Positions 950-10,938 of a stretch of 12,614 nt of DNA are shown piece by piece (within the stretch, counting starts at the first letter, position 1; every line of letters starts with the position of its first letter). The notes under the pieces were generated by a model. That model saw only the letters and a program-made list of their open reading frames with translations. It did not search any database and was not told the DNA's origin. Made by a program: the position numbers and the translations under genes. Source of the DNA: an uncultured bacterium (GTDB lineage: Bacteria > Abyssobacteria > SURF-5); the NCBI GenBank assembly GCA_964510165.1, contig CAZEBC010000067.1:5364-17977 (forward strand), given 5' to 3'.

Positions 950-1945
950 ATGGCGATAGAATCCACAGTATACGGGCGGGCGGGTCTGTTGGGAAATCCG
1001 TCGGACGGCTATTTCGGAAAAACGATATCGATCTCCGTCGGAAACTTCGCCGCGAGTGTCTCGCTTGAGCACACGGAGAGGCTCCGAATCGAGGCTGATG
1101 CGCCTGAGCAGTCTTCTTATGAGAGCATGGAGGAGCTTGCTCGCCAGGTGGGCCGCTACGGGTACTATGGCGCCGAACGGCTGTTGAAGGCAGCGATAAA
1201 AATGTTCCACGATTACTGCGCGTCGAACGGCGTCACGCTTGAACGCAAGAATTTCACGATGCGCGCTCGGTCGTTGATACCGCGGCAAGTGGGACTGGGC
1301 GGCTCGAGCGCGATAGTTACCGCCGCCATGCGCTGCCTCATGCGATTCTTCGATGTCGATATTCCGCTCGAAATCCTTCCGTCGCTCACCCTTGATGCGG
1401 AGAGGCGCGAACTCGGAATCAGTGCCGGCCTGCAGGACAGGGTAATCCAGGCGTATGGGGGATGTCTCTTCATGGATTTCAGTCGCGAGCTTATTCAAAG
1501 GAACAATTGCGGCCGTTACGAACGGTTGGACCCCGGTCTTCTGCCGCCGTTGTTCATAGCGTACAAGGAAGGCCTCGGCAAGGTGTCGGGACATGCGCTC
1601 ACCCCGATAGGCGTCGGATTCGAGCGAGGCGACAAGCTGGTGCTCGACTCTCTCGCCCGCCTGGCTGAGATCGCGGAGGAGGGAAAGCAGGCCCTGTTCA
1701 ACGGCGACTTCGACCGGCTTTTCGACTTGATGAACGAGAATTTCGAGCAGCGAAGCAAGATCATGCCTATCAGCGAAGGGAACCGCGAGATGATCGAAAC
1801 GGCCCGCAAGCTCGGGGCATCGGCCAAGTTCGCGGGCTCCGGCGGTTCGATAATCGGAATGTACCGAGACGACGACATGTTCGCCAGTCTGGTTGAAGCG
1901 TTCGCGAGAATCGAGGCGAAGCTCATAAAGCCAACGATAGTGTAG
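950..1945 (+). CDS. GHMP kinase, glucuronokinase-like
   Basis: ATG 950 follows GGAGAGG (932-938) and is preferred over the track's TTG 836. GHMP ATP-binding loop IPRQVGLGGSSA. RAGLLGNPSDGYFGKTIS, ELGISAGLQDRVIQAYGG, FMDFS, LLPPL and AKFAGSGG resemble plant glucuronokinase as recalled. Confidence 0.8.
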   Translation: MAIESTVYGRAGLLGNPSDGYFGKTISISVGNFAASVSLEHTERLRIEADAPEQSSYESMEELARQVGRYGYYGAERLLKAAIKMFHDYCASNGVTLERKNFTMRARSLIPRQVGLGGSSAIVTAAMRCLMRFFDVDIPLEILPSLTLDAERRELGISAGLQDRVIQAYGGCLFMDFSRELIQRNNCGRYERLDPGLLPPLFIAYKEGLGKVSGHALTPIGVGFERGDKLVLDSLARLAEIAEEGKQALFNGDFDRLFDLMNENFEQRSKIMPISEGNREMIETARKLGASAKFAGSGGSIIGMYRDDDMFASLVEAFARIEAKLIKPTIV

Positions 1946-1959
1946 GAGGACGTTGACGC

Positions 1960-2835
1960 ATGGTGCGAAAGGCTGTCATCCCGGCAGCGGGGTCGGGGAC
2001 CAGATTCCTTCCGGTGACAAAGGCGCAACCGAAAGAGATGCTTCCGATCATTGATACGCCAACGATACAGTATGTCGTGCAAGAGGCGGTGGATTCCGGC
2101 ATCGACGACATTCTCATCGTCACTGGTAAGGGAAAGCGCGCCATCGAGGACCACTTCGACCGCAATCCCGAGTTGGAGCGACTGCTTGATAACAAGAATG
2201 AGAAGTGGCTCGCACGCGAGGTTCGGCGGCTCGCCGACATGGCGAATATACATTTCATCCGGCAGAAGGAACCCAAAGGGCTGGGGGATGCAGTCTTGTG
2301 CGCGCGCCACCACGTGGGCGATGAGCCGTTCGCCGTCCTGCTGGGCGACACCATCATAGAATCCGACGCGCCAGCCGTCCGCCAACTCATCGAGCGCCAC
2401 TATGAGTACGGGCATACCATCATCGGGGTAGAGACGGTTCCCAAAGAAAAGGTCTCGCGGTACGGCGTTGTCGGCGGGAGAAGGATTCGAGACGATATCC
2501 TCCAGGTGACCACCCTGGTTGAGAAGCCTTCCATCGAGCAGAGTCCCTCCGCCCTCGCCATAGCCGGTCGCTACATACTGACACCGGCGATATTCGATAT
2601 TCTTGAGAGCCTGCCGAAAGGCAGGAACGATGAGGTCCAACTCACCGACGCCTTGAGAACGCTTCTGAATACGCAGCCGGTTTACTCCTTAACCATCAAA
2701 GGCAAGCGATACGATATCGGCGACAAGCTCGATTACCTCAAAACACAGGTCGAATATGGACTCAAAAGACAAGATTTCGGCCAGGCATTTCTGGAATTCC
2801 TGAAAGAAACAATAGCATCCTGCGAGGCCCGCTGA
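1960..2835 (+). CDS. galU: UTP--glucose-1-phosphate uridylyltransferase
   Basis: KAVIPAAGSGTRFLPVTKAQPKEMLP, GKRAIEDHFD, RQKEPKGLGDAV, LVEKP, EVQLTDA and RYDIG. Strong RBS AGGAGG directly after the kinase stop. Confidence 0.95.
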   Translation: MVRKAVIPAAGSGTRFLPVTKAQPKEMLPIIDTPTIQYVVQEAVDSGIDDILIVTGKGKRAIEDHFDRNPELERLLDNKNEKWLAREVRRLADMANIHFIRQKEPKGLGDAVLCARHHVGDEPFAVLLGDTIIESDAPAVRQLIERHYEYGHTIIGVETVPKEKVSRYGVVGGRRIRDDILQVTTLVEKPSIEQSPSALAIAGRYILTPAIFDILESLPKGRNDEVQLTDALRTLLNTQPVYSLTIKGKRYDIGDKLDYLKTQVEYGLKRQDFGQAFLEFLKETIASCEAR

Positions 2836-2910
2836 CACTGCATCCTCTCGACCGTGTTTCATCACGAAAATCAGCGTGGCCTTTGTTTGGCTGCTTAACT
2901 CTTGCCCATA

Positions 2911-2940
2911 TTGACACCCCGTCCATAACAGTGTTAGAAT
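2911..2940 (+). promoter_or_regulatory. sigma70-type promoter of the thi operon
   Basis: TTGACA (2911-2916), 18-nt spacer, extended -10 TG-t-TAGAAT (2932-2940). The predicted start site falls at the 5' end of the TPP aptamer. Confidence 0.8.
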
Positions 2941-2943
2941 AAG

Positions 2944-3032
2944 TGTCAAGCTAGGGGTGTGCAAAGACACTGAGAGTCTGAACGACAACCCTTTGAACCT
3001 GAACTGGGTAATGCCAGCGTAGGGAAGCGACA
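2944..3032 (+). ncRNA. TPP riboswitch aptamer (THI element)
   Basis: CTAGGGGTG...CTGAGA...ACCCTTTGAACCTGA.CTGGGTAATGCCAGCGTAGGGAAG. Stems: P3 GTGT/ACAC, P3a GTC/GAC, P5 CTGG/CCAG, P1 TGTC-aa-GCT/AGC-GACA. Lies directly upstream of thiS. Confidence 0.97.
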
Positions 3033-3050
3033 TCGAGAACCAGCATTTCA

Positions 3051-3085
3051 GCCGCGTTCCCTACAAGGATGCGGCAATTTTTTTT
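3051..3085 (+). terminator. intrinsic terminator forming the riboswitch expression platform
   Basis: Hairpin GCCGCGTTCC-ctacaa-GGATGCGGC followed by AA and 8 T. TTCCCTAC (3057-3064) is the exact complement of aptamer GTAGGGAA (3019-3026), giving an antiterminator pairing. Confidence 0.88.
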
Positions 3086-3091
3086 GAGACT

Positions 3092-3316
3092 ATGCGCATA
3101 ACGCTGAACGGCGAGCAATACGAAACCGAAGGGCCGATGACCGTTGCCGATTTACTCAAGGCGCTCGGCCTTGATGGTGCGCGTGTCGCGGTTGAACTGA
3201 ACCTCGATATCCTGCCCAAAAGCGACTATGCGACCGAGGCGCTCAGGGAGGGCGATCGGCTCGAGGTCGTCCATTTTGTTGGCGGAGGAAAACCGCAACC
3301 GGAGGTATCGCAATGA
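3092..3316 (+). CDS. thiS: sulfur carrier protein ThiS with C-terminal extension
   Basis: MRITLNGE...VAVELN...[15 protein letters not shown] followed by KPQPEVSQ. First gene behind the TPP riboswitch; overlaps thiG by ATGA. Confidence 0.92.
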
Positions 3317-4092
3317 CGGATGAACTGGTTATAGCCGGCCGTAAATATCGCTCTCGCCTGCTCATCGGAACCGGCAAGTACGCGACATTCGAGCAGATGC
3401 GCGAGGCGCTGGACAAGTCGGGCGCGGAGATCGTCACCGTCGCCGTGCGCCGAATCAACATCTCGGACCGGAGCAAGGAATCGCTGCTCGATTACATCGA
3501 CACAAGCAAGTACGCGCTGTTGCCGAACACGGCCGGCTGTTACTCGGCCGAAGACGCGATCCGAACCGCTCGCCTCGGGCGAGAGGCCGGGCTTTCCGAC
3601 ATGGTGAAGCTGGAGGTTATCGGCGACGAGAAAACCCTGTTCCCCGACAACGAGGGGCTGCTCCAGGCTGCCAAGGTGCTCATCAAGGAAGGCTTCGTCG
3701 TGTTGCCCTACACGAACGATGACCCGATAACCTGCAAGAAACTGGAGGAGATCGGATGCGCCGCCGTGATGCCTCTGGCCGCTCCCATCGGCTCCGGGCT
3801 CGGCATCAGAAACCCATATAACATCCGAATCATTGTCGAACAGGCGAAAGTGCCCGTGATTGTTGACGCCGGCGTCGGTACCGCGTCCGATGCCGCTATC
3901 GCGATGGAACTCGGAGTGGATGGCGTGCTCATGAACACAGGCGTCGCCGGCGCGAAGAATCCCGTGCTCATGGCAGAGGCTATGCGCTTGGCGGTCGACG
4001 CAGGCCGCAAGGCCTTTCTCGCGGGCCGGATACCCCGCAAGCTCTACGCGACCGCGAGCAGCCCGTTGGAGGGAATCATTGCTGCAGGTTGA
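3313..4092 (+). CDS. thiG: thiazole synthase
   Basis: [32 protein letters not shown] (Schiff-base Lys), [25 protein letters not shown] and ASSP. RBS GGAGGT at 3301-3306. Confidence 0.97.
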
Positions 4093-4801
4093 TTTTCGGT
4101 TGTATCTCATAACGGACCGGATTCAATGCGAACCGGAAGGCCTTCTCCCGCGCGTCGAGGCAGCTTTGCGCGGCGGGGTGGACGCGGTCCAACTTCGCGA
4201 CAAAGACCTCACCACGCGCGAGCGATATGAAATCGGGATGAAGCTTCGCGAGATGACCTCCAGGTTCGGTGCCAGGCTGTTCGTCAATAATGACGCCGCG
4301 CTGGCCCGAGCGATTCGCGCCGACGGCGTACACCTGCCGCAGGACGGGTTGCCAGCGGATGTATGTCGAACAGTGCTCGAGCCGCATATGCTGATCGGGG
4401 TCTCCACCCATAGCCTGGCGGAGGCGTTGGATGCGGAGGCCAGGTGCGCGGATTTCATCACGTTCGGACCTGTATACCACACGCCCTCGAAAGCGCAGTA
4501 CGGTTGTCCGGTCGGTCTGGATGCGTTGCGAGAAGTATGCGCACGGATCAAACTCCCGGTATATGCGCTTGGCGGGGTCAAGAAATCGAATATAGAAGAA
4601 GTCATATCGGCGGGCGCGGCCGGAATCGCCATGATATCCGCCATATTGGCCGCTGCCGAGCCGGAGCGCGCCGCCGCAGAAATCAAGACGGCCATCCGGC
4701 TCGCGTGCCCGGCGCCGTCTTCCCCTCCCCCCAACCCTCTCCCGACGGGAGAGGGCAGGGTGAGGGGCTTTGCGAACGGAAGAAAGGTTGACTCGAAATG
4801 A
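4079..4801 (+). CDS. thiE: thiamine-phosphate synthase (ThiE/TenI family)
   Basis: [42 protein letters not shown] and IAMISAI. TTG start after GGAGGG (4068-4073). The C-terminal tail is partly encoded by a palindromic repeat. Confidence 0.85.
4722..4767. repeat. REP-like palindromic element inside the thiE 3' end
   Basis: Perfect core CCCTCTCCC-gac-GGGAGAGGG (4735-4755) with imperfect outer arms CCCCTCcCCC / GGGTGAGGGG. It translates as [13 protein letters not shown] or [11 protein letters not shown] depending on frame, a pattern I recognise from dispersed bacterial repeats. Confidence 0.75.
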
Positions 4802-6078
4802 CTCAGCTATTGAAAGCCAGACAAGGGGTCGTCACGCCGGAGATGGAACAGGTGGCCGCCGCCGAGGGCAGGTCCGCCGAATATATACGAGAAGGTGTCG
4901 GGGAGGGAAGCATAATAATCACGCGCAACATCGGCCACAAATCCGCGCAAGCCCTGGGCATTGGCAGGGGCCTGAGAATAAAGGTCAACGCAAACATCGG
5001 AACTTCCGGCGACAATAAGGACATGGCGATTGACCTCGAGAAGCTCAATGTCGCAATCTCAGCGGGCGCCGATACGGTGATGGACCTGAGTGTCGGCGGC
5101 CCGGTGGATGAGGTCCTGAAAGAGGTTCTCATGCGCTCGACGGTGCCTGTCGGCACGGTGCCCATCTACCAGGCGGCTTTGCAGGCCCGGTTGCGCGGCA
5201 AGGCATATGTTGAGCTGAGCGCCGACGAGATATTCGAGACCATAGAAGAACATGCGCGCGTGGGTGTTGACTTTGTCACGGTTCATTGCGCGGTCACTCA
5301 GGGATCGGTCGCGCGCCTGAAGAAGCACAAGCGCATTCTTGACATCGTGAGCCGGGGCGGCGCGTTGATGCTCGAGTGGATGATGTACAACAAGAAGGAG
5401 AATCCGCTGTATGAGCACTTCGACCGGCTGCTCGAGATCGCGAGGGAATACGACATGTCGCTCAGCCTTGGCGACGGCATGCGCCCGGGCTGCATCGCCG
5501 ACGCGACCGACAGGGGTCAGATTCAAGAACTTATCATCCAGGGAGAGTTGGTCGAACGCTGCTGGGCCGCCGGCGTGCAGGTGATGTGCGAGGGGCCCGG
5601 TCATGTTCCGCTGGACCAGATCGCCGCCAACATGATTCTCCAGAAGCGCCTGTGCCGGGGCGCGCCGTTCTACGTGCTCGGCCCGCTTGTCACGGATATC
5701 GCGCCCGGGTACGACCACATAACGGGCGCAATCGGCGGGGCGATTGCCGCGATGGCGGGCGCCGATTTCCTCTGTTATGTGACGCCGTCGGAGCACTTGC
5801 GGTTGCCCTCCGTCGAGGACGTGAGAGAGGGCGTCATCGCATCGCGCATTGCCGCGCATGCTGCTGACATCGCGCGGAGCATTCCGGGCGCGGTCGAAAG
5901 GGATAACGCGATGGCTCGATGCCGAAAGAATCTCGATTGGGAGGGGCAGATATCTCTTGCCATCGATCCGGAGCGGGCGCGCGCGCTTCGGGAAAGCAGC
6001 CGCCCAGCCGACAGCGAAGTCTGCACGATGTGCGGTGAGTTCTGCGCCATCAAGGTAACCCGCAAGGCCACGGCATAA
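4798..6078 (+). CDS. thiC: phosphomethylpyrimidine synthase (short, anaerobe-type)
   Basis: KVNANIGTS, GADTVMDLS, GTVPIYQA, GVDFVTVH, IVSRGG, SLGDGMRPG, EGPGHVP, PFYVLGPLVTDIAPGYDHI, CYVTPSEHL and the C-terminal Fe-S motif CTMCGEFC. Confidence 0.96.
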   Translation: MTQLLKARQGVVTPEMEQVAAAEGRSAEYIREGVGEGSIIITRNIGHKSAQALGIGRGLRIKVNANIGTSGDNKDMAIDLEKLNVAISAGADTVMDLSVGGPVDEVLKEVLMRSTVPVGTVPIYQAALQARLRGKAYVELSADEIFETIEEHARVGVDFVTVHCAVTQGSVARLKKHKRILDIVSRGGALMLEWMMYNKKENPLYEHFDRLLEIAREYDMSLSLGDGMRPGCIADATDRGQIQELIIQGELVERCWAAGVQVMCEGPGHVPLDQIAANMILQKRLCRGAPFYVLGPLVTDIAPGYDHITGAIGGAIAAMAGADFLCYVTPSEHLRLPSVEDVREGVIASRIAAHAADIARSIPGAVERDNAMARCRKNLDWEGQISLAIDPERARALRESSRPADSEVCTMCGEFCAIKVTRKATA

Positions 6079-6088
6079 GGAGTCCCAT

Positions 6089-7513
6089 TTGAGGCTGCCC
6101 TCTGTCGCACACGCTGTATTGCCCCCGCTGATCATCGCCGTGGCGTTAGCCGTGCGCGCATGGTGTTATACGGGTCCCATCGGCAGCGACGATCACGACT
6201 ATTATCTCGCCGCCTACGAGATGCACAAGGGCGAATATCAACCCTCCGAAAAATACTGGAAGAACCGCTACGGAATGATCCTTCCCATTGCCGCCGCATA
6301 TGAGATTCTTGGCACAAATGAGTACGCGGCGGCGGCCTGGCCGATGTTTTCCGCGCTCGGGGCCGTTGCGGTGTGCTACCTTCTCGGCAAGAAGCTTGTC
6401 GACGGGCAGACCGGACTGCTTGCGGCGCTGCTGTTGGCTTTTTACCCGCTTGACGTTCATTATTCCGGGTTGATACTGCCGGACATTCCGATTTCCTTTT
6501 TGATTGCGACGTCGGTGTACGCCTTCATCGAGGCTGGCACACGCGCCAAACGCAGTCTTCCGTTGTATTTCCTGTCGGGGCTTTTGCTCGGCATTGCGTA
6601 CCTGTGCCGGTCGATGTCGGTCGTTGTATTGCCTTTTCTGGCGCTTTACATCATCTTTTTCGAGAGAAAACTGAGGCTGGAGCATTCGCTGCTCGCGGTC
6701 GGTTTCGCGGCGGTGCTCGCAGCGGAAGGCGCATATTACGCGCTCAACGGATTGAGTCCGCTCTATGGGTTTCAGCTCAACGCGCAGGCCGCGATAGCCG
6801 TCAATTCATCCGGTGAATGCTCGACGAGCCAGGGATACTATCCGCAAGTCATTTTCGGGAACCTGTCGGTCTTCGGCCCCTATTTTTACCTGTTCTTGCC
6901 TGCCATGGCGCTGGCCGCCGTCAAACGAGAGCGGGGCGCGCTGATTCTGCTGGCGTGGGCGGGGAGCATCCTCTTCATCTTGCAGTTCGGATACGTGAGT
7001 CTGTTTCCGCCCATTGCCGTCGTGAAGGTCCGTAAGTTCCTGATTTACGGAACAGTCCCTCTGGTCTTGCTTGGGGCATGGGCTTTGATGCAGGTGAGAG
7101 CGCGGCTCCGATGGTCCGTAGTGACGCTCCTTGTCGGGCTATCCCTTTATTTCCTGAGGCCATGCTCGTATTCCTTCAACCGCACTCCGGAGGCGATGGG
7201 AGGCAACGTTCGGCAAGTGGCGGCCTACCTAAAGCAGTTGCCGCCGAAACCGATCTATACCGACCTCCGCACCCAGGCGATGCTGATGCTTGCCTCGGGA
7301 TTCGAATTTCCTCCGGAGAGGTTTCGGGATTTATACCAGGTCGCATCGCCCCGGGAATTGCGCGGCTGCTACGTGGTGATCAACTGGTTCTATGCCAGAT
7401 TCGATTCTCCAGCGGGGGCAACGCCGACGTATGTCATAAACTACCTTAGGAGCGTGCCGACCGATTGGACCAAGAAAGATTTCGCGCAGTCACTTGTGCT
7501 GGACGTGCCTTAA
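6089..7513 (+). CDS. polytopic membrane glycosyltransferase, ArnT/GT39 (PMT_2)-like GT-C fold
   Basis: First transmembrane helix followed by GSDDHDY (acidic pair typical of GT-C), then YLLGKKLVD..GLLAALLLAFYP, ILPD.P and LSGLLLGIAYL.R. About 11-13 hydrophobic segments and a soluble C-terminal domain. TTG start after AAGGAG. Confidence 0.75.
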   Translation: MRLPSVAHAVLPPLIIAVALAVRAWCYTGPIGSDDHDYYLAAYEMHKGEYQPSEKYWKNRYGMILPIAAAYEILGTNEYAAAAWPMFSALGAVAVCYLLGKKLVDGQTGLLAALLLAFYPLDVHYSGLILPDIPISFLIATSVYAFIEAGTRAKRSLPLYFLSGLLLGIAYLCRSMSVVVLPFLALYIIFFERKLRLEHSLLAVGFAAVLAAEGAYYALNGLSPLYGFQLNAQAAIAVNSSGECSTSQGYYPQVIFGNLSVFGPYFYLFLPAMALAAVKRERGALILLAWAGSILFILQFGYVSLFPPIAVVKVRKFLIYGTVPLVLLGAWALMQVRARLRWSVVTLLVGLSLYFLRPCSYSFNRTPEAMGGNVRQVAAYLKQLPPKPIYTDLRTQAMLMLASGFEFPPERFRDLYQVASPRELRGCYVVINWFYARFDSPAGATPTYVINYLRSVPTDWTKKDFAQSLVLDVP

Positions 7514-7562
7514 GTGATTTTTGGGGAGAAGGGGAAAGCGGAGGGCATCGGGATTTCCGCTC

Positions 7563-8093
7563 ATGAGAAGGTTTACAGAAATCAAGCGTCATGTGAACAA
7601 GCCCACAGAGCGATACGAGTGTGAGTTGATAAGGAAGGGCGATGACCGGGTGGCCCTCAGGTACGTGAGCGACCGCGAGTTCGAGAGTGAGCGACTGGGC
7701 GTGATTTTTCCGCCCGGCTGCGTCACCATTGCCCTTTACCAGATGGACCTGCCATATGTTTTTTGGGGGATTTTCTCGCCCGAGAGCGAGCTCTTGGGTT
7801 ATCTCGTACACATATGCAAGGATTTGTCGATTTCGGAGGATTCGGTCAGCTATTTGGACATGCTGCTGGACATCTGGTTCTACTCCAATGGAACGTATGT
7901 GATTCTGGATGTCGAGGAAGTGGAGGGCTGTATCCGGTCAGGCCGATTGACTCAGGCAGACAAAGCATATATTGAGAAGGCGAGGGATGTGGCCGTCCGG
8001 GAGTTCTCCGGGAAAGCCGATGAGGTCAGGCGGATGGAGGAGGAATACCGAATCCGACTTGCAGATGGCAATTCTGACATCTCAATCGCTTGA
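7563..8093 (+). CDS. DUF402 domain protein (FomD/Ntdp-like metal-dependent nucleotide hydrolase fold)
   Basis: GYLVHIC...VSYLDMLLDIW...ILDVEEV...G.LT matches the DUF402 acidic pattern (DxxLD...LDxxE). ATG 7563 is preferred over TTG 7521, but the start is uncertain. Confidence 0.75.
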   Translation: MRRFTEIKRHVNKPTERYECELIRKGDDRVALRYVSDREFESERLGVIFPPGCVTIALYQMDLPYVFWGIFSPESELLGYLVHICKDLSISEDSVSYLDMLLDIWFYSNGTYVILDVEEVEGCIRSGRLTQADKAYIEKARDVAVREFSGKADEVRRMEEEYRIRLADGNSDISIA

Positions 8094-8118
8094 CATTTGC
8101 GCGCTGCATCAATAAAAT
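8090..8118 (+). promoter_or_regulatory. sigma70 promoter for the decarboxylase beta-subunit gene
   Basis: TTGACA (8090-8095), 17-nt spacer, TAAAAT (8113-8118): 11 of 12 consensus positions. The -35 box overlaps the DUF402 stop codon. Confidence 0.8.
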
Positions 8119-8192
8119 GTCAGCAAAAGCCCTTCCGTTTGTTTCTGGCAGCCGATTCCTTTTCAGCCACACCAGGGAGAGGAAAGTCATAT

Positions 8193-9344
8193 ATGTCAGC
8201 TCAGGAGTTCTTGGATGTCTTGCAGAGTATCGCCCTGCAGACCGGTGTATTCAGCCTGAAGTGGGGCCACCTGGTCATGTGGGCTATCGGCCTGATATTC
8301 TTGTATCTTGCGGTGGCGAAGAAGTATGAACCGTTGCTGCTTCTTCCAATCGGCTTCGGCATTTTTCTCGTCAATTTTCCATTGACTCCGCTCATGGGGG
8401 CCAACCCCGAGACCGGGCAGGAGCATCTGCTCCAGATTTTCTACCATTATGGCGTCGCGTGGGAAGTAATACCCTGCGTTATCTTTCTCGGGTTGGGCGC
8501 TATGACGGATTTCGGGCCGCTGATCGCGAACCCCAAGACGCTGCTGGTGGGCGCGGGCTCCCAGCTTGGGGTGTTCGTGACGTTTTCGGCGACCCTGATT
8601 TTCGGGTTTACGATGAAGGAGGCAGCCTCGGTCGGCATAATAGGCGGGGCCGACGGACCCACGACGATATATCTGACGAGCGCACTTGCGCCCCATCTGC
8701 TTGGCCCGAACGCGCTGGCTGCGTACTCGTACATGGCGATGGTGCCCATCATACAGCCGCCGTTGATGCGGCTCATCACGACACGCAAAGAGCGTCGCAT
8801 CAGGATGAGGCAGCTCAGGCATGTTTCCCAAAGGGAGAAGCTGCTGTTTCCGCTTCTTGGAACCGCGCTGATTGCGCTCTTGATCCCGGCTATCATGCCC
8901 CTGATGGGGATGCTGATGCTCGGCAATTTCATGAGAGAGAGCGGGGCGGTAAGGCGTCTGAGCGATACGGCGCAGAACGCCCTAATGAATATTGTGGTCA
9001 TTTTTCTGGGCTTGTCAGTGGGCGCCACGATGAGCGCCGAGCAGTTCCTCACGAAGAAGCCGCTAGTGATCTTCGCGTTTGGACTGCTTGATTTTGCCGT
9101 GTGCACCATTGGCGGGATACTGACCGTGAAGGTGATGAACTTGTTCCTGAAGGAAAAGCTGAATCCGCTCATCGGGTCTGCGGGCGTTTCAGCCGTTCCG
9201 ATGTCTTCGCGTGTGTCGCAAATGGTCGGCCTTCAGGAAGACCCTGAGAATTATCTGCTGCTTCATGCGATGGGGCCGAACCTGGCGGGTGTCATCGGCA
9301 CCGCCGCCGCTGCGGGCCTGTTTATCGCGATGTTCGCCTCATAA
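8193..9344 (+). CDS. sodium ion-translocating decarboxylase, beta subunit (OadB/GcdB/MmdB family)
   Basis: YEPLLLLPIGFG, IFLGLGAMTDFGPLIANPK, IIGGADGPT, AAYSYMAMVPIIQPP, LGNFMRESG, NPLIGSAGVSAVPM and HAMGPNLAGVIGT. ATG 8193 follows GGAGAGGA. The track's TTG 8097 lies inside the promoter. Substrate class cannot be told from the beta subunit alone. Confidence 0.95.
   Translation: MSAQEFLDVLQSIALQTGVFSLKWGHLVMWAIGLIFLYLAVAKKYEPLLLLPIGFGIFLVNFPLTPLMGANPETGQEHLLQIFYHYGVAWEVIPCVIFLGLGAMTDFGPLIANPKTLLVGAGSQLGVFVTFSATLIFGFTMKEAASVGIIGGADGPTTIYLTSALAPHLLGPNALAAYSYMAMVPIIQPPLMRLITTRKERRIRMRQLRHVSQREKLLFPLLGTALIALLIPAIMPLMGMLMLGNFMRESGAVRRLSDTAQNALMNIVVIFLGLSVGATMSAEQFLTKKPLVIFAFGLLDFAVCTIGGILTVKVMNLFLKEKLNPLIGSAGVSAVPMSSRVSQMVGLQEDPENYLLLHAMGPNLAGVIGTAAAAGLFIAMFAS

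Positions 9345-9480: not shown

Positions 9481-10938
<1,458 letters not shown>

Follow-up and report, generated by a model that had tools for sequence, protein, structure and literature searches.

A probable uronate-activation cassette, pairing a glucuronokinase-family kinase with a distinctive GalU-type uridylyltransferase, in diverse bacteria

UDP-glucuronate feeds the synthesis of capsules, exopolysaccharides and UDP-xylose and the modification of lipid A, and in bacteria it is, to our knowledge, taken to come only from the oxidation of UDP-glucose. Here we draw attention to two adjacent genes in a 12,614-nucleotide stretch of DNA from an uncultured bacterium of the Abyssobacteria (lineage SURF-5; GenBank assembly GCA_964510165.1, contig CAZEBC010000067.1, positions 5,364 to 17,977; 'the window' hereafter means this whole stretch). 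Together they probably make up a uronate-activation cassette, in which a bacterial kinase of the glucuronokinase family (GlcAK; EC 2.7.1.43; KEGG K16190) is coupled to a member of a special clade of GalU proteins. Comparative genomics makes it reasonably probable that the pair is a mobile two-gene unit converting D-glucuronate (GlcA) by way of GlcA-1-phosphate into UDP-glucuronate (UDP-GlcA). A free uronic acid, most likely D-glucuronate, would be activated by this self-contained cassette in two steps: the kinase, a GHMP enzyme, would use ATP to phosphorylate the anomeric C1, giving GlcA-1-phosphate, and the downstream GalU-type enzyme would join this to UMP from UTP, giving UDP-glucuronate. 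The cassette would in that case be a salvage route running parallel to the UDP-glucose dehydrogenase (Ugd) route. The genes, and the residues on which much of the discussion turns, are as follows.

950..1945, + strand: gene for a GHMP kinase of the GlcAK family, a candidate glucuronate 1-kinase of 331 amino acids (P0001); ATG at 950, TAG at 1943-1945
992..1030, + strand: N-terminal kinase motif GNPSDGYFGKTIS, residues 15-27; the Xenopus GKUP ('glucuronokinase with putative uridyl pyrophosphorylase') kinase domain is identical here
1277..1312, + strand: GHMP phosphate-binding motif IPRQVGLGGSSA, residues 110-121; kept in each of the 12 bacterial sequences aligned, and in the eukaryotic ones as well
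1424..1462, + strand: motif AGLQDRVIQAYGG, residues 159-171; its GLQDRV is invariant in bacterial and eukaryotic rows
1944..1949, + strand: AGGAGG, the ribosome-binding site of galU; it overlaps the stop codon of the kinase gene and lies 10 nucleotides 5' of the galU ATG
1960..2835, + strand: gene for a GalU-type UTP-sugar-1-phosphate uridylyltransferase of the kinase-linked clade, 291 amino acids (P0002); ATG at 1960, TGA at 2833-2835
2287..2289, + strand: Asp110, in GLGDA (GLGHA in generic GalUs)
2347..2352, + strand: Asp130-Thr131; Asp130 aligns with the Mg-binding Asp, and Thr131 stands at the glucose-contacting Asp134 of YngB
2563..2565, + strand: Ala202, adjoining the residue at the position of YngB Val204 (a glucose contact)

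The spacer between the genes, read from the sequence, is 14 nucleotides (1946-1959), and a consensus scan of it revealed nothing promoter-like or terminator-like. A first-pass annotation of this DNA, made from its letters alone, had already picked out the short gap, the strong ribosome-binding site and the three kinase motifs, all of which are as it described them. It had gone on to suggest a two-step kinase plus uridylyltransferase pathway. That suggestion gains from family membership, conserved linkage, gene fusion, co-inheritance and the transporters encoded at sister loci, which in combination make a uronic-acid route the best reading of the pair; the substrate, and the acceptance of GlcA-1-phosphate by the GalU, are parts of it that we infer.

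The kinase is, on sequence grounds, a member of the glucuronokinase family within the GHMP superfamily. Both of its Pfam domains score above their cut-offs (GHMP_kinases_N, 46.4 bits against 22.3; GHMP_kinases_C, 30.8 bits against 21). The phosphate-binding motif of GHMP kinases is rich in Gly and Ser, of the type P-x-x-x-G-L-x-S-S-A, and IPRQVGLGGSSA is of this type. AGLLGNPSDGYFGK in the kinase answers to the GNPSD-Y-G-[KR] motif known from purified Lilium enzyme, and is to be compared with the Lilium pollen peptide VGFLGNPSDVYFGR (PMC2823444). All three motifs align with 'glucuronokinase 1' of Ziziphus jujuba (P0269; 43% identity over 341 amino acids, E 1e-87) and with nine eukaryotic or fused kinase domains, among them that of Xenopus tropicalis GKUP (P0224; 38% identity, E 1.4e-62). 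The label 'eukaryote-type' was misleading, as bacteria have many members of the family: at least 592 loci were confirmed among species genomes, and HMMER, run without filters over 1.84 billion representatives, gave 465 clusters at E<=1e-30 (the Z. jujuba enzyme included). Bacterial homologues were indeed listed in 2009, when the paper reporting the cloning of the plant enzyme referred to glucuronokinase genes in 'a few bacteria', with Solibacter, Dyadobacter and Verrucomicrobium in its tree (PMC2823444). In a large protein collection there are at least 7976 relatives of similar length, many of them labelled 'glucuronokinase' by the Joint Genome Institute, and among the matches listed are 120 longer proteins (37-48% identity, with at least 90% of the query covered), mostly animal or protist NTP_transferase+GHMP fusions bearing the GKUP name.

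No NCBIfam model scored above its own cut-off on the kinase. We had to consider whether it might be an HddA or a mevalonate kinase, a grouping that would have told against the first-pass annotation, and both identities were rejected: the HddA model gave 42.3 bits against a cut-off of 600, and the mevalonate kinase model 57 bits against 163. In a maximum-likelihood tree of 109 rows (quick search, with SH-aLRT support only), the split between 103 family rows and five HddA-like outgroups had a support of 99; all 13 rows from eukaryotes formed one clade (99), and the window kinase fell in a bacterial clade of 76 rows (99). Among PDB sequences the nearest relative is a kinase of the HddA-like kind, with an E value of only 2.8e-14, from which it follows that no glucuronokinase structure was found there. 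At one outlying locus (L017; G035:C81:1501-5418), a kinase that is only 30% identical to that of the window, and that has the motif GNPTDGYGG, takes a place in the tree beyond all members of the family. Directly upstream of this divergent kinase lies a GalU-like gene (274 bits, of the GDS type), and because of this the pairing of kinase with GalU may predate the glucuronokinase family proper.

Adjacency to galU is a widespread property of these kinases. Loci were collected with a pattern scan that used the N-terminal motif on one genome per species, and linkage was counted in the best 80 of the at least 592 loci, GalU being sought by tblastn with the window protein. A galU gene lies directly downstream on the same strand in 52 of the 80 (gaps of 4-386 nucleotides; 57-90% identity to the window GalU), and these 52, going by their record titles, are spread over Bacteroidota, Gemmatimonadota, Calditrichota, Ignavibacteriota, Fibrobacterota, Fidelibacterota, Myxococcota and Pseudomonadota. 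The same arrangement occurs in three relatives from the window's own family. Four further loci have a divergent GalU-like gene (38-43% identity) directly upstream, and two of these upstream GalU-likes scored 290-301 bits, just below the cut-off of the TIGR01099 galU model. The remaining 24 have no adjacent GalU, although in five of them fewer than 210 nucleotides of downstream sequence were available for judgement. Conservation of the linkage was a point on which the first-pass annotation had staked its proposal, and these counts, with the fusions described below, speak in its favour. One of the linked galU genes, in a Calditrichia metagenome-assembled genome (MAG) (L043; 4001-6152), matches in two frames, over residues 1-200 and 200-285, which could reflect a frameshift or an assembly error; alginate lyase and GH2 genes lie upstream.

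Fusion of the two activities is also found. In six proteins of about 600-630 amino acids a GalU-like N-terminal half is joined to the kinase; the GalU-like half has 44-50% identity to the upstream type and 34-38% to the window GalU, and the proteins appear to be bacterial, to judge from their positions in the tree beside Planctomycetota and Balneolota loci. One eukaryotic protein has the kinase fused to a pyrophosphorylase domain of the UDPGP family. The transferase half of the animal fusion gave no BLASTP match to the window GalU at E<=1e-3; the idea that the two belong to the same subfamily was rejected on this account, and the GKUP transferase is thus assigned to another. The kinase has consequently been joined to pyrophosphorylases of three types, which amounts to a 'Rosetta stone' argument for a shared pathway.

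The two genes also come and go together. In the window's family, a kinase orthologue is present in four of 10 genomes and a canonical galU in exactly those four, while neither was detected in the other six (91-98% complete). All six keep an orthologue of the Ugd-like gene (72-78% identity), so it appears that this lineage can supply UDP-glucose without a canonical GalU, and GalU in the family looks like an accessory gene that arrived with the kinase. A comparable situation was met in the phylum of a Bacteroidales MAG, where matches to the kinase (E<=1e-40) and to canonical galU (E<=1e-60) each come from one of 151 genomes, the same one, and are adjacent. GalU of the linked type was thus confined to kinase-bearing genomes in both of the groups searched. 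The linked gene is the sole canonical GalU in four other pair-bearing genomes, a generic second copy accompanies it in two of five further genomes, and in the five genomes where the kinase is unlinked a GalU or GalU-like gene is always present at another site. In the window genome itself the GalU of the pair is the only canonical one; there are two phosphohexomutase genes, and a Ugd-like gene adjoins a gene for an epimerase/dehydratase of the short-chain dehydrogenase/reductase type. The first-pass annotation had proposed looking for ugd and a second galU in the genome, and of these only the first has a counterpart.

Three Bacteroidota loci (L134-L136: G041:C6:85126-85974, G042:C12:286069-286917 and G045:C2:1645969-1646817) encode GalU-like nucleotidyltransferases of 328-344 amino acids that score only about 150 bits against TIGR01099 and have GDY where others have GDD or GDT. 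As canonical GalU was detected in none of the 150 other genomes of the Bacteroidales MAG's phylum, proteins of this type may be the usual UDP-glucose enzyme there. At three loci a gene with an MPAB_Lcp_cat oxygenase domain lies at about 5000-6200: in the two from Runella (L061 and L094) it is 3' of the kinase, and in one from Sphingobacteriales (L071) it is downstream and read from the other strand. The genomes of L094 and L071 were searched, and in both a GalU of the linked clade is located elsewhere.

By score the window GalU is canonical (374.3 bits against the TIGR01099 equivalog cut-off of 326.8), and its best solved relative is YngB of B. subtilis (E 9e-101). In a tree of 84 rows (quick search, LG+G4), 50 downstream-linked sequences and two unlinked ones from kinase-bearing Bacteroidota formed a single clade of 52 rows (clade I, support 99); the upstream-linked and fused sequences, with one unlinked sequence from a kinase-bearing genome (a Planctomycetota locus), formed a second (clade II, support 100); and all 12 generic or second-copy GalUs lay outside both. 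The two linked clades mirror two bacterial clades of the kinase tree.

These linked proteins share a signature close to the sugar site. In YngB, Asp133 binds Mg, Asp134, Gly172, Glu191 and Val204 contact the glucose of UDP-glucose, and Lys192 contacts phosphate (PMC7961091). Alignment with YngB shows that the window GalU keeps Asp130, Gly169, Glu188 and Lys189 and has Ile201 in place of Val204. Position 131, corresponding to Asp134 of YngB, is Thr or Ser in all 55 kinase-adjacent GalU-likes, Cys in all six fused rows and Asp in all 14 generic ones, and one or other of Thr, Ser and Cys is present throughout both linked clades (64 of 64 rows). Position 110 is Asp in every row of clade I (52/52) and in nine of the 12 rows of clade II, and His in 13 of 14 generic rows; position 202 is Ala in 51/52 and 10/12 rows of the two clades, but Val, Ile, Leu or Thr in all 14 generic rows. 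A sugar site that has lost an acidic residue, with a smaller residue beside it, would suit a sugar bearing a carboxylate. Thr131 by itself was rejected as proof of a new specificity, as the UDP-glucose pyrophosphorylase (UGP) of Klebsiella has Val there.

More tentatively, we put forward the possibility that the linked clade consists of dedicated UDP-glucuronate (that is, uronic acid-1-phosphate) pyrophosphorylases, forming with the kinase a horizontally mobile, Ugd-independent module leading from free glucuronate to UDP-GlcA. If so, the GalU family would include a specificity new to it, with Asp110, Thr, Ser or Cys at position 131, and Ala202 as its marks, and the same pairing would have been fixed as a fusion several times, in bacteria and in eukaryotes.

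Three kinds of evidence point to a hexuronate as the sugar: the specificity of characterised relatives, the transporters encoded near sister kinases, and the failure to find the glucuronate isomerase UxaC in the window genome. As to the first of these, a glucuronokinase is expected to phosphorylate D-glucuronate at C1 with ATP and to leave Glc, Gal, Xyl, Ara and galacturonate (GalA) untouched; the Arabidopsis enzyme is reported to use GlcA alone of six sugars tried, and the plant GalA kinase is reported to be an unrelated GHMP sequence (PMC2823444). Glucuronokinase activity has also been reported for the zebrafish and Xenopus GKUP proteins (PMC3938481). The particular choice of D-glucuronate comes from homology to such GlcA-specific eukaryotic enzymes and from the hexuronate-type transporters. 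Neighbouring genes were scanned at 19 of the 24 loci without adjacent GalU, the four loci of the upstream type and 38 of the 52 of the downstream type (the other 14 comprise eight with short flanks and six more). At the 19 unlinked loci, genes for the tripartite ATP-independent periplasmic (TRAP) transporter components DctP/Q/M lie 3' of the kinase in five, and a gene for a transporter of the major facilitator superfamily (MFS), which among NCBIfam models fits the D-galactonate (anion:cation symporter) subfamily best, does so in three. At the 38 pair loci, TRAP genes lie 3' of galU in three, and a gene for UxaC in one. Two TRAP binding proteins, one from L030 and one from L091, were compared with solved structures. 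Their best matches (E 1e-72 to 1e-76) are 4N8Y and 4X8R, which bind galacturonate and glucuronate (PMC11668362), and they are also matched by the glucuronate binders 4N91 and 4MHF; TRAP systems are described as importers of organic acids (PMC7660916). UxaC was not found in the window genome, which is 97% complete, so an isomerase route for the use of GlcA was likewise not found.

A further arrangement was noticed at nine of the sister loci (L030, L032, L034, L037, L050, L093, L097, L099 and L103, at about 1700-4000), all of the Aminicenantes/Acidobacteriota type. Here a gene for a xylose-isomerase-like triosephosphate isomerase (TIM)-barrel protein precedes the kinase and a TRAP or MFS transporter follows it. 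Often there is also a gene for a 3-keto-disaccharide hydrolase or for an oxidoreductase of the GFO/IDH/MocA type, the latter coming closest, below cut-off, to the NCBIfam model 'glycoside 3-dehydrogenase'. Such loci may specify a route that releases a uronic acid from a glycoside, or processes it.

Other explanations for the pair must be set against a glucuronate-activating cassette. It is unlikely, though worth serious thought, that the substrate is a different acidic sugar, D-galacturonate or hexuronates more broadly, and the product UDP-GalA or a mixture. The TRAP binding proteins resemble the galacturonate binder 4N8Y as closely as they do the glucuronate binders 4X8R, 4N91 and 4MHF, the enzyme encoded beside the pair at one locus, UxaC, acts on both hexuronates, and the identity of the kinase to characterised GlcAKs is only 38-45%; but the Arabidopsis enzyme does not use galacturonate, the plant GalA kinase is reported to belong elsewhere among GHMP sequences (PMC2823444), and the N-terminal motif is the same as that of the Xenopus glucuronokinase. 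We think it slightly more unlikely that the kinase phosphorylates the anomeric carbon of a neutral sugar such as glucose, feeding an ordinary UDP-glucose pyrophosphorylase in a route to UDP-glucose that is independent of phosphoglucomutase. The TIGR01099 score, the closeness to a proven UDP-glucose pyrophosphorylase and the lack of any other canonical GalU in the genome would all fit, as would the ability of the Klebsiella enzyme to work with a non-acidic residue at the Asp position (PMC11796359). Against this, sister kinases adjoin TRAP and anion-symporter-type transporters, which are carriers of organic acids; glucose is not used by the characterised members of the kinase family (PMC2823444); the genome has two phosphohexomutase genes; relatives without the cassette keep Ugd, and so appear to form UDP-glucose with no canonical GalU; and the linked GalUs stand apart from generic ones, both clades sharing changes near the sugar site. 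Finally, there is little to recommend the notion that adjacency reflects only shared regulation or chance co-transfer, the product of the kinase (in some catabolic or non-sugar role) not being a substrate of the GalU. It is true that an adjacent GalU is missing from 24 of the 80 loci, and that at several loci the kinase keeps company with transporter, oxidoreductase and TIM-barrel genes of catabolic appearance; against it stand adjacency at 56 of 80 loci in many phyla, two independent kinds of pyrophosphorylase fusion, trees that run in parallel, presence and absence that match exactly in two samples, and a GalU or GalU-like gene in all five genomes where the kinase is unlinked.

The proposal that the pair makes UDP-glucuronate from glucuronate has also to be held against a number of observations that weigh in the other direction. 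The GalU scores as a canonical UDP-glucose pyrophosphorylase, it retains the Mg-binding Asp together with Gly169, Glu188 and Lys189, and its closest solved relative, YngB, is a proven UDP-glucose pyrophosphorylase (PMC7961091); being the only canonical GalU of its genome, it may also, or only, make UDP-glucose. Position 131 moreover varies among active bacterial UGPs, so that Thr in place of Asp there is not diagnostic: Klebsiella UGP is active with Val138, its V138A and V138D variants having 67% and 61% of wild-type activity, whereas Pseudomonas UGP D131A is nearly dead (PMC11796359). In the zebrafish and Xenopus fusions the pyrophosphorylase half is reported to be almost inactive in vitro (PMC3938481), so that fusion alone is no proof of a working second step. 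At 38-48% identity the sugar specificity of the kinase may have shifted, for example to galacturonate. In the window genome no hexuronate TRAP binding protein was found and the best MFS match is weak (28% identity); a search there for myo-inositol oxygenase (MIOX) gave no match, but is uninformative because its control was also silent. The presence of a Ugd-like gene means that salvage is not required, and the genomes compared belong to related organisms inside one family or clade, which means that the tallies given above do not represent independent events. Lastly, full-text searches, which reached few subscription journals, brought to light neither a characterised bacterial glucuronokinase nor a description of a kinase-galU pair, nor any assay of a GalU on GlcA-1-phosphate, in agreement with the first-pass annotation, which knew of no characterised bacterial example. 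In so far as comparative genomics reaches, it nevertheless supports a kinase-plus-uridylyltransferase route for a uronic acid.

On this interpretation the pair extends a known kinase-pyrophosphorylase pathway, and is not a new kind of system. Its nearest parallel is in plants, where GlcAK and UDP-sugar pyrophosphorylase (USP) serve the myo-inositol oxygenase route: the kinase family and all three motifs are shared with the window, as is the two-step logic of an anomeric kinase followed by a pyrophosphorylase (PMC2823444). The plant USP belongs to the UDPGP family (PF01704), whereas the second enzyme of the window is a GalU-type nucleotidyltransferase of about 290 amino acids (PF00483), and the bacterial kinase and transferase genes are adjacent. 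In the accessible parts of a 2022 perspective and a 2025 review, discussion of salvage cascades for UDP-GlcA cites only the Arabidopsis kinase and USP. The GKUP proteins of zebrafish and Xenopus have a kinase domain homologous to that of the window (37-42% identity), and likewise couple it to a short nucleotidyltransferase of bacterial type (a resemblance remarked on in the zebrafish paper of 2014; PMC3938481), but as a single polypeptide, with the transferase N-terminal and the kinase C-terminal, and not as two genes with the kinase first. With the GalU/GtaB/YngB proteins (TIGR01099; 7B1R, 3JUK, 2PA4, 5VE7) the window GalU shares the Mg-binding Asp, the Glu-Lys pair and the Gly contacts, while differing from them in its membership of a separate clade that travels with the kinase and has Thr131, Asp110 and Ala202. 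HddA/HddC has the same design, with a sugar-1-kinase beside a nucleotidyltransferase, although kinase, sugar and nucleotide all differ from those of the window. Fkp of Bacteroides (fucokinase/GDP-fucose pyrophosphorylase) and AmgK/MurU are other salvage pairs of this sort, in which a sugar-1-kinase adjoins or is fused to a nucleotidyltransferase, again with a different sugar and nucleotide.

If the cassette does act as we suppose, it would, given the Ugd-like gene, provide a second route to UDP-GlcA, as in plants, and some bacteria could build such polymers directly from glucuronate freed from plant, algal or animal glycans. 'GalU' annotations in cassette-bearing genomes would have to be read differently. 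There would also be a compact pair of bacterial enzymes for the one-pot synthesis of UDP-GlcA, and a working comparison for the animal GKUP fusion, whose pyrophosphorylase activity is reported to be barely detectable (PMC3938481).

We turn finally to the surroundings of the pair, which include the following features on its 3' side.

2862..2879, + strand: weak terminator-like hairpin 3' of galU, of five pairs (a consensus match only)
2911..2940, + strand: near-consensus promoter-like site (11/12 consensus matches) that starts a separate thi operon
2943..3042, + strand: thiamine pyrophosphate (TPP) riboswitch, RF00059 (62.5 bits, above its gathering score of 54.3)

On the 5' side is the 3' part of a NAD kinase gene, ending at 839. 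An upstream TTG at 836 was considered as the start of the glucuronokinase-like gene and rejected in favour of the ATG at 950, because homologues of 331 amino acids span 100% of the query. The hairpin at 2862-2879 is a possible end of a two-gene unit, and the region 2911-3042 forms the downstream boundary, where the separate thiS-thiG-thiE-thiC operon begins. With the end of the NAD kinase gene upstream, and terminator-like and promoter-like sites, a riboswitch and thi genes downstream, the pair looks like a bicistronic unit of its own, and the kinase and galU are probably co-transcribed.

The thiamine unit is complete (2911-6078), comprising promoter-like site, riboswitch, thiS, thiG, thiE and thiC, with gene ends that overlap or abut; the riboswitch is followed by a terminator-like hairpin and T-run (3051-3075), and thiS occupies 3092-3316. 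Farther along the window (7521-9344) are genes for a DUF402 protein and then for the beta subunit of a Na+-translocating decarboxylase (OAD_beta, 501 bits), with no genes for alpha or gamma subunits seen adjoining the latter in the window. An open reading frame for 441 amino acids at 9607-10932 (+ strand) has no family match and is probably spurious; it overlaps, at 9481-10896 on the - strand, a gene for a member of the Beta_elim_lyase family (of the tryptophanase/tyrosine phenol-lyase type, 265 bits).

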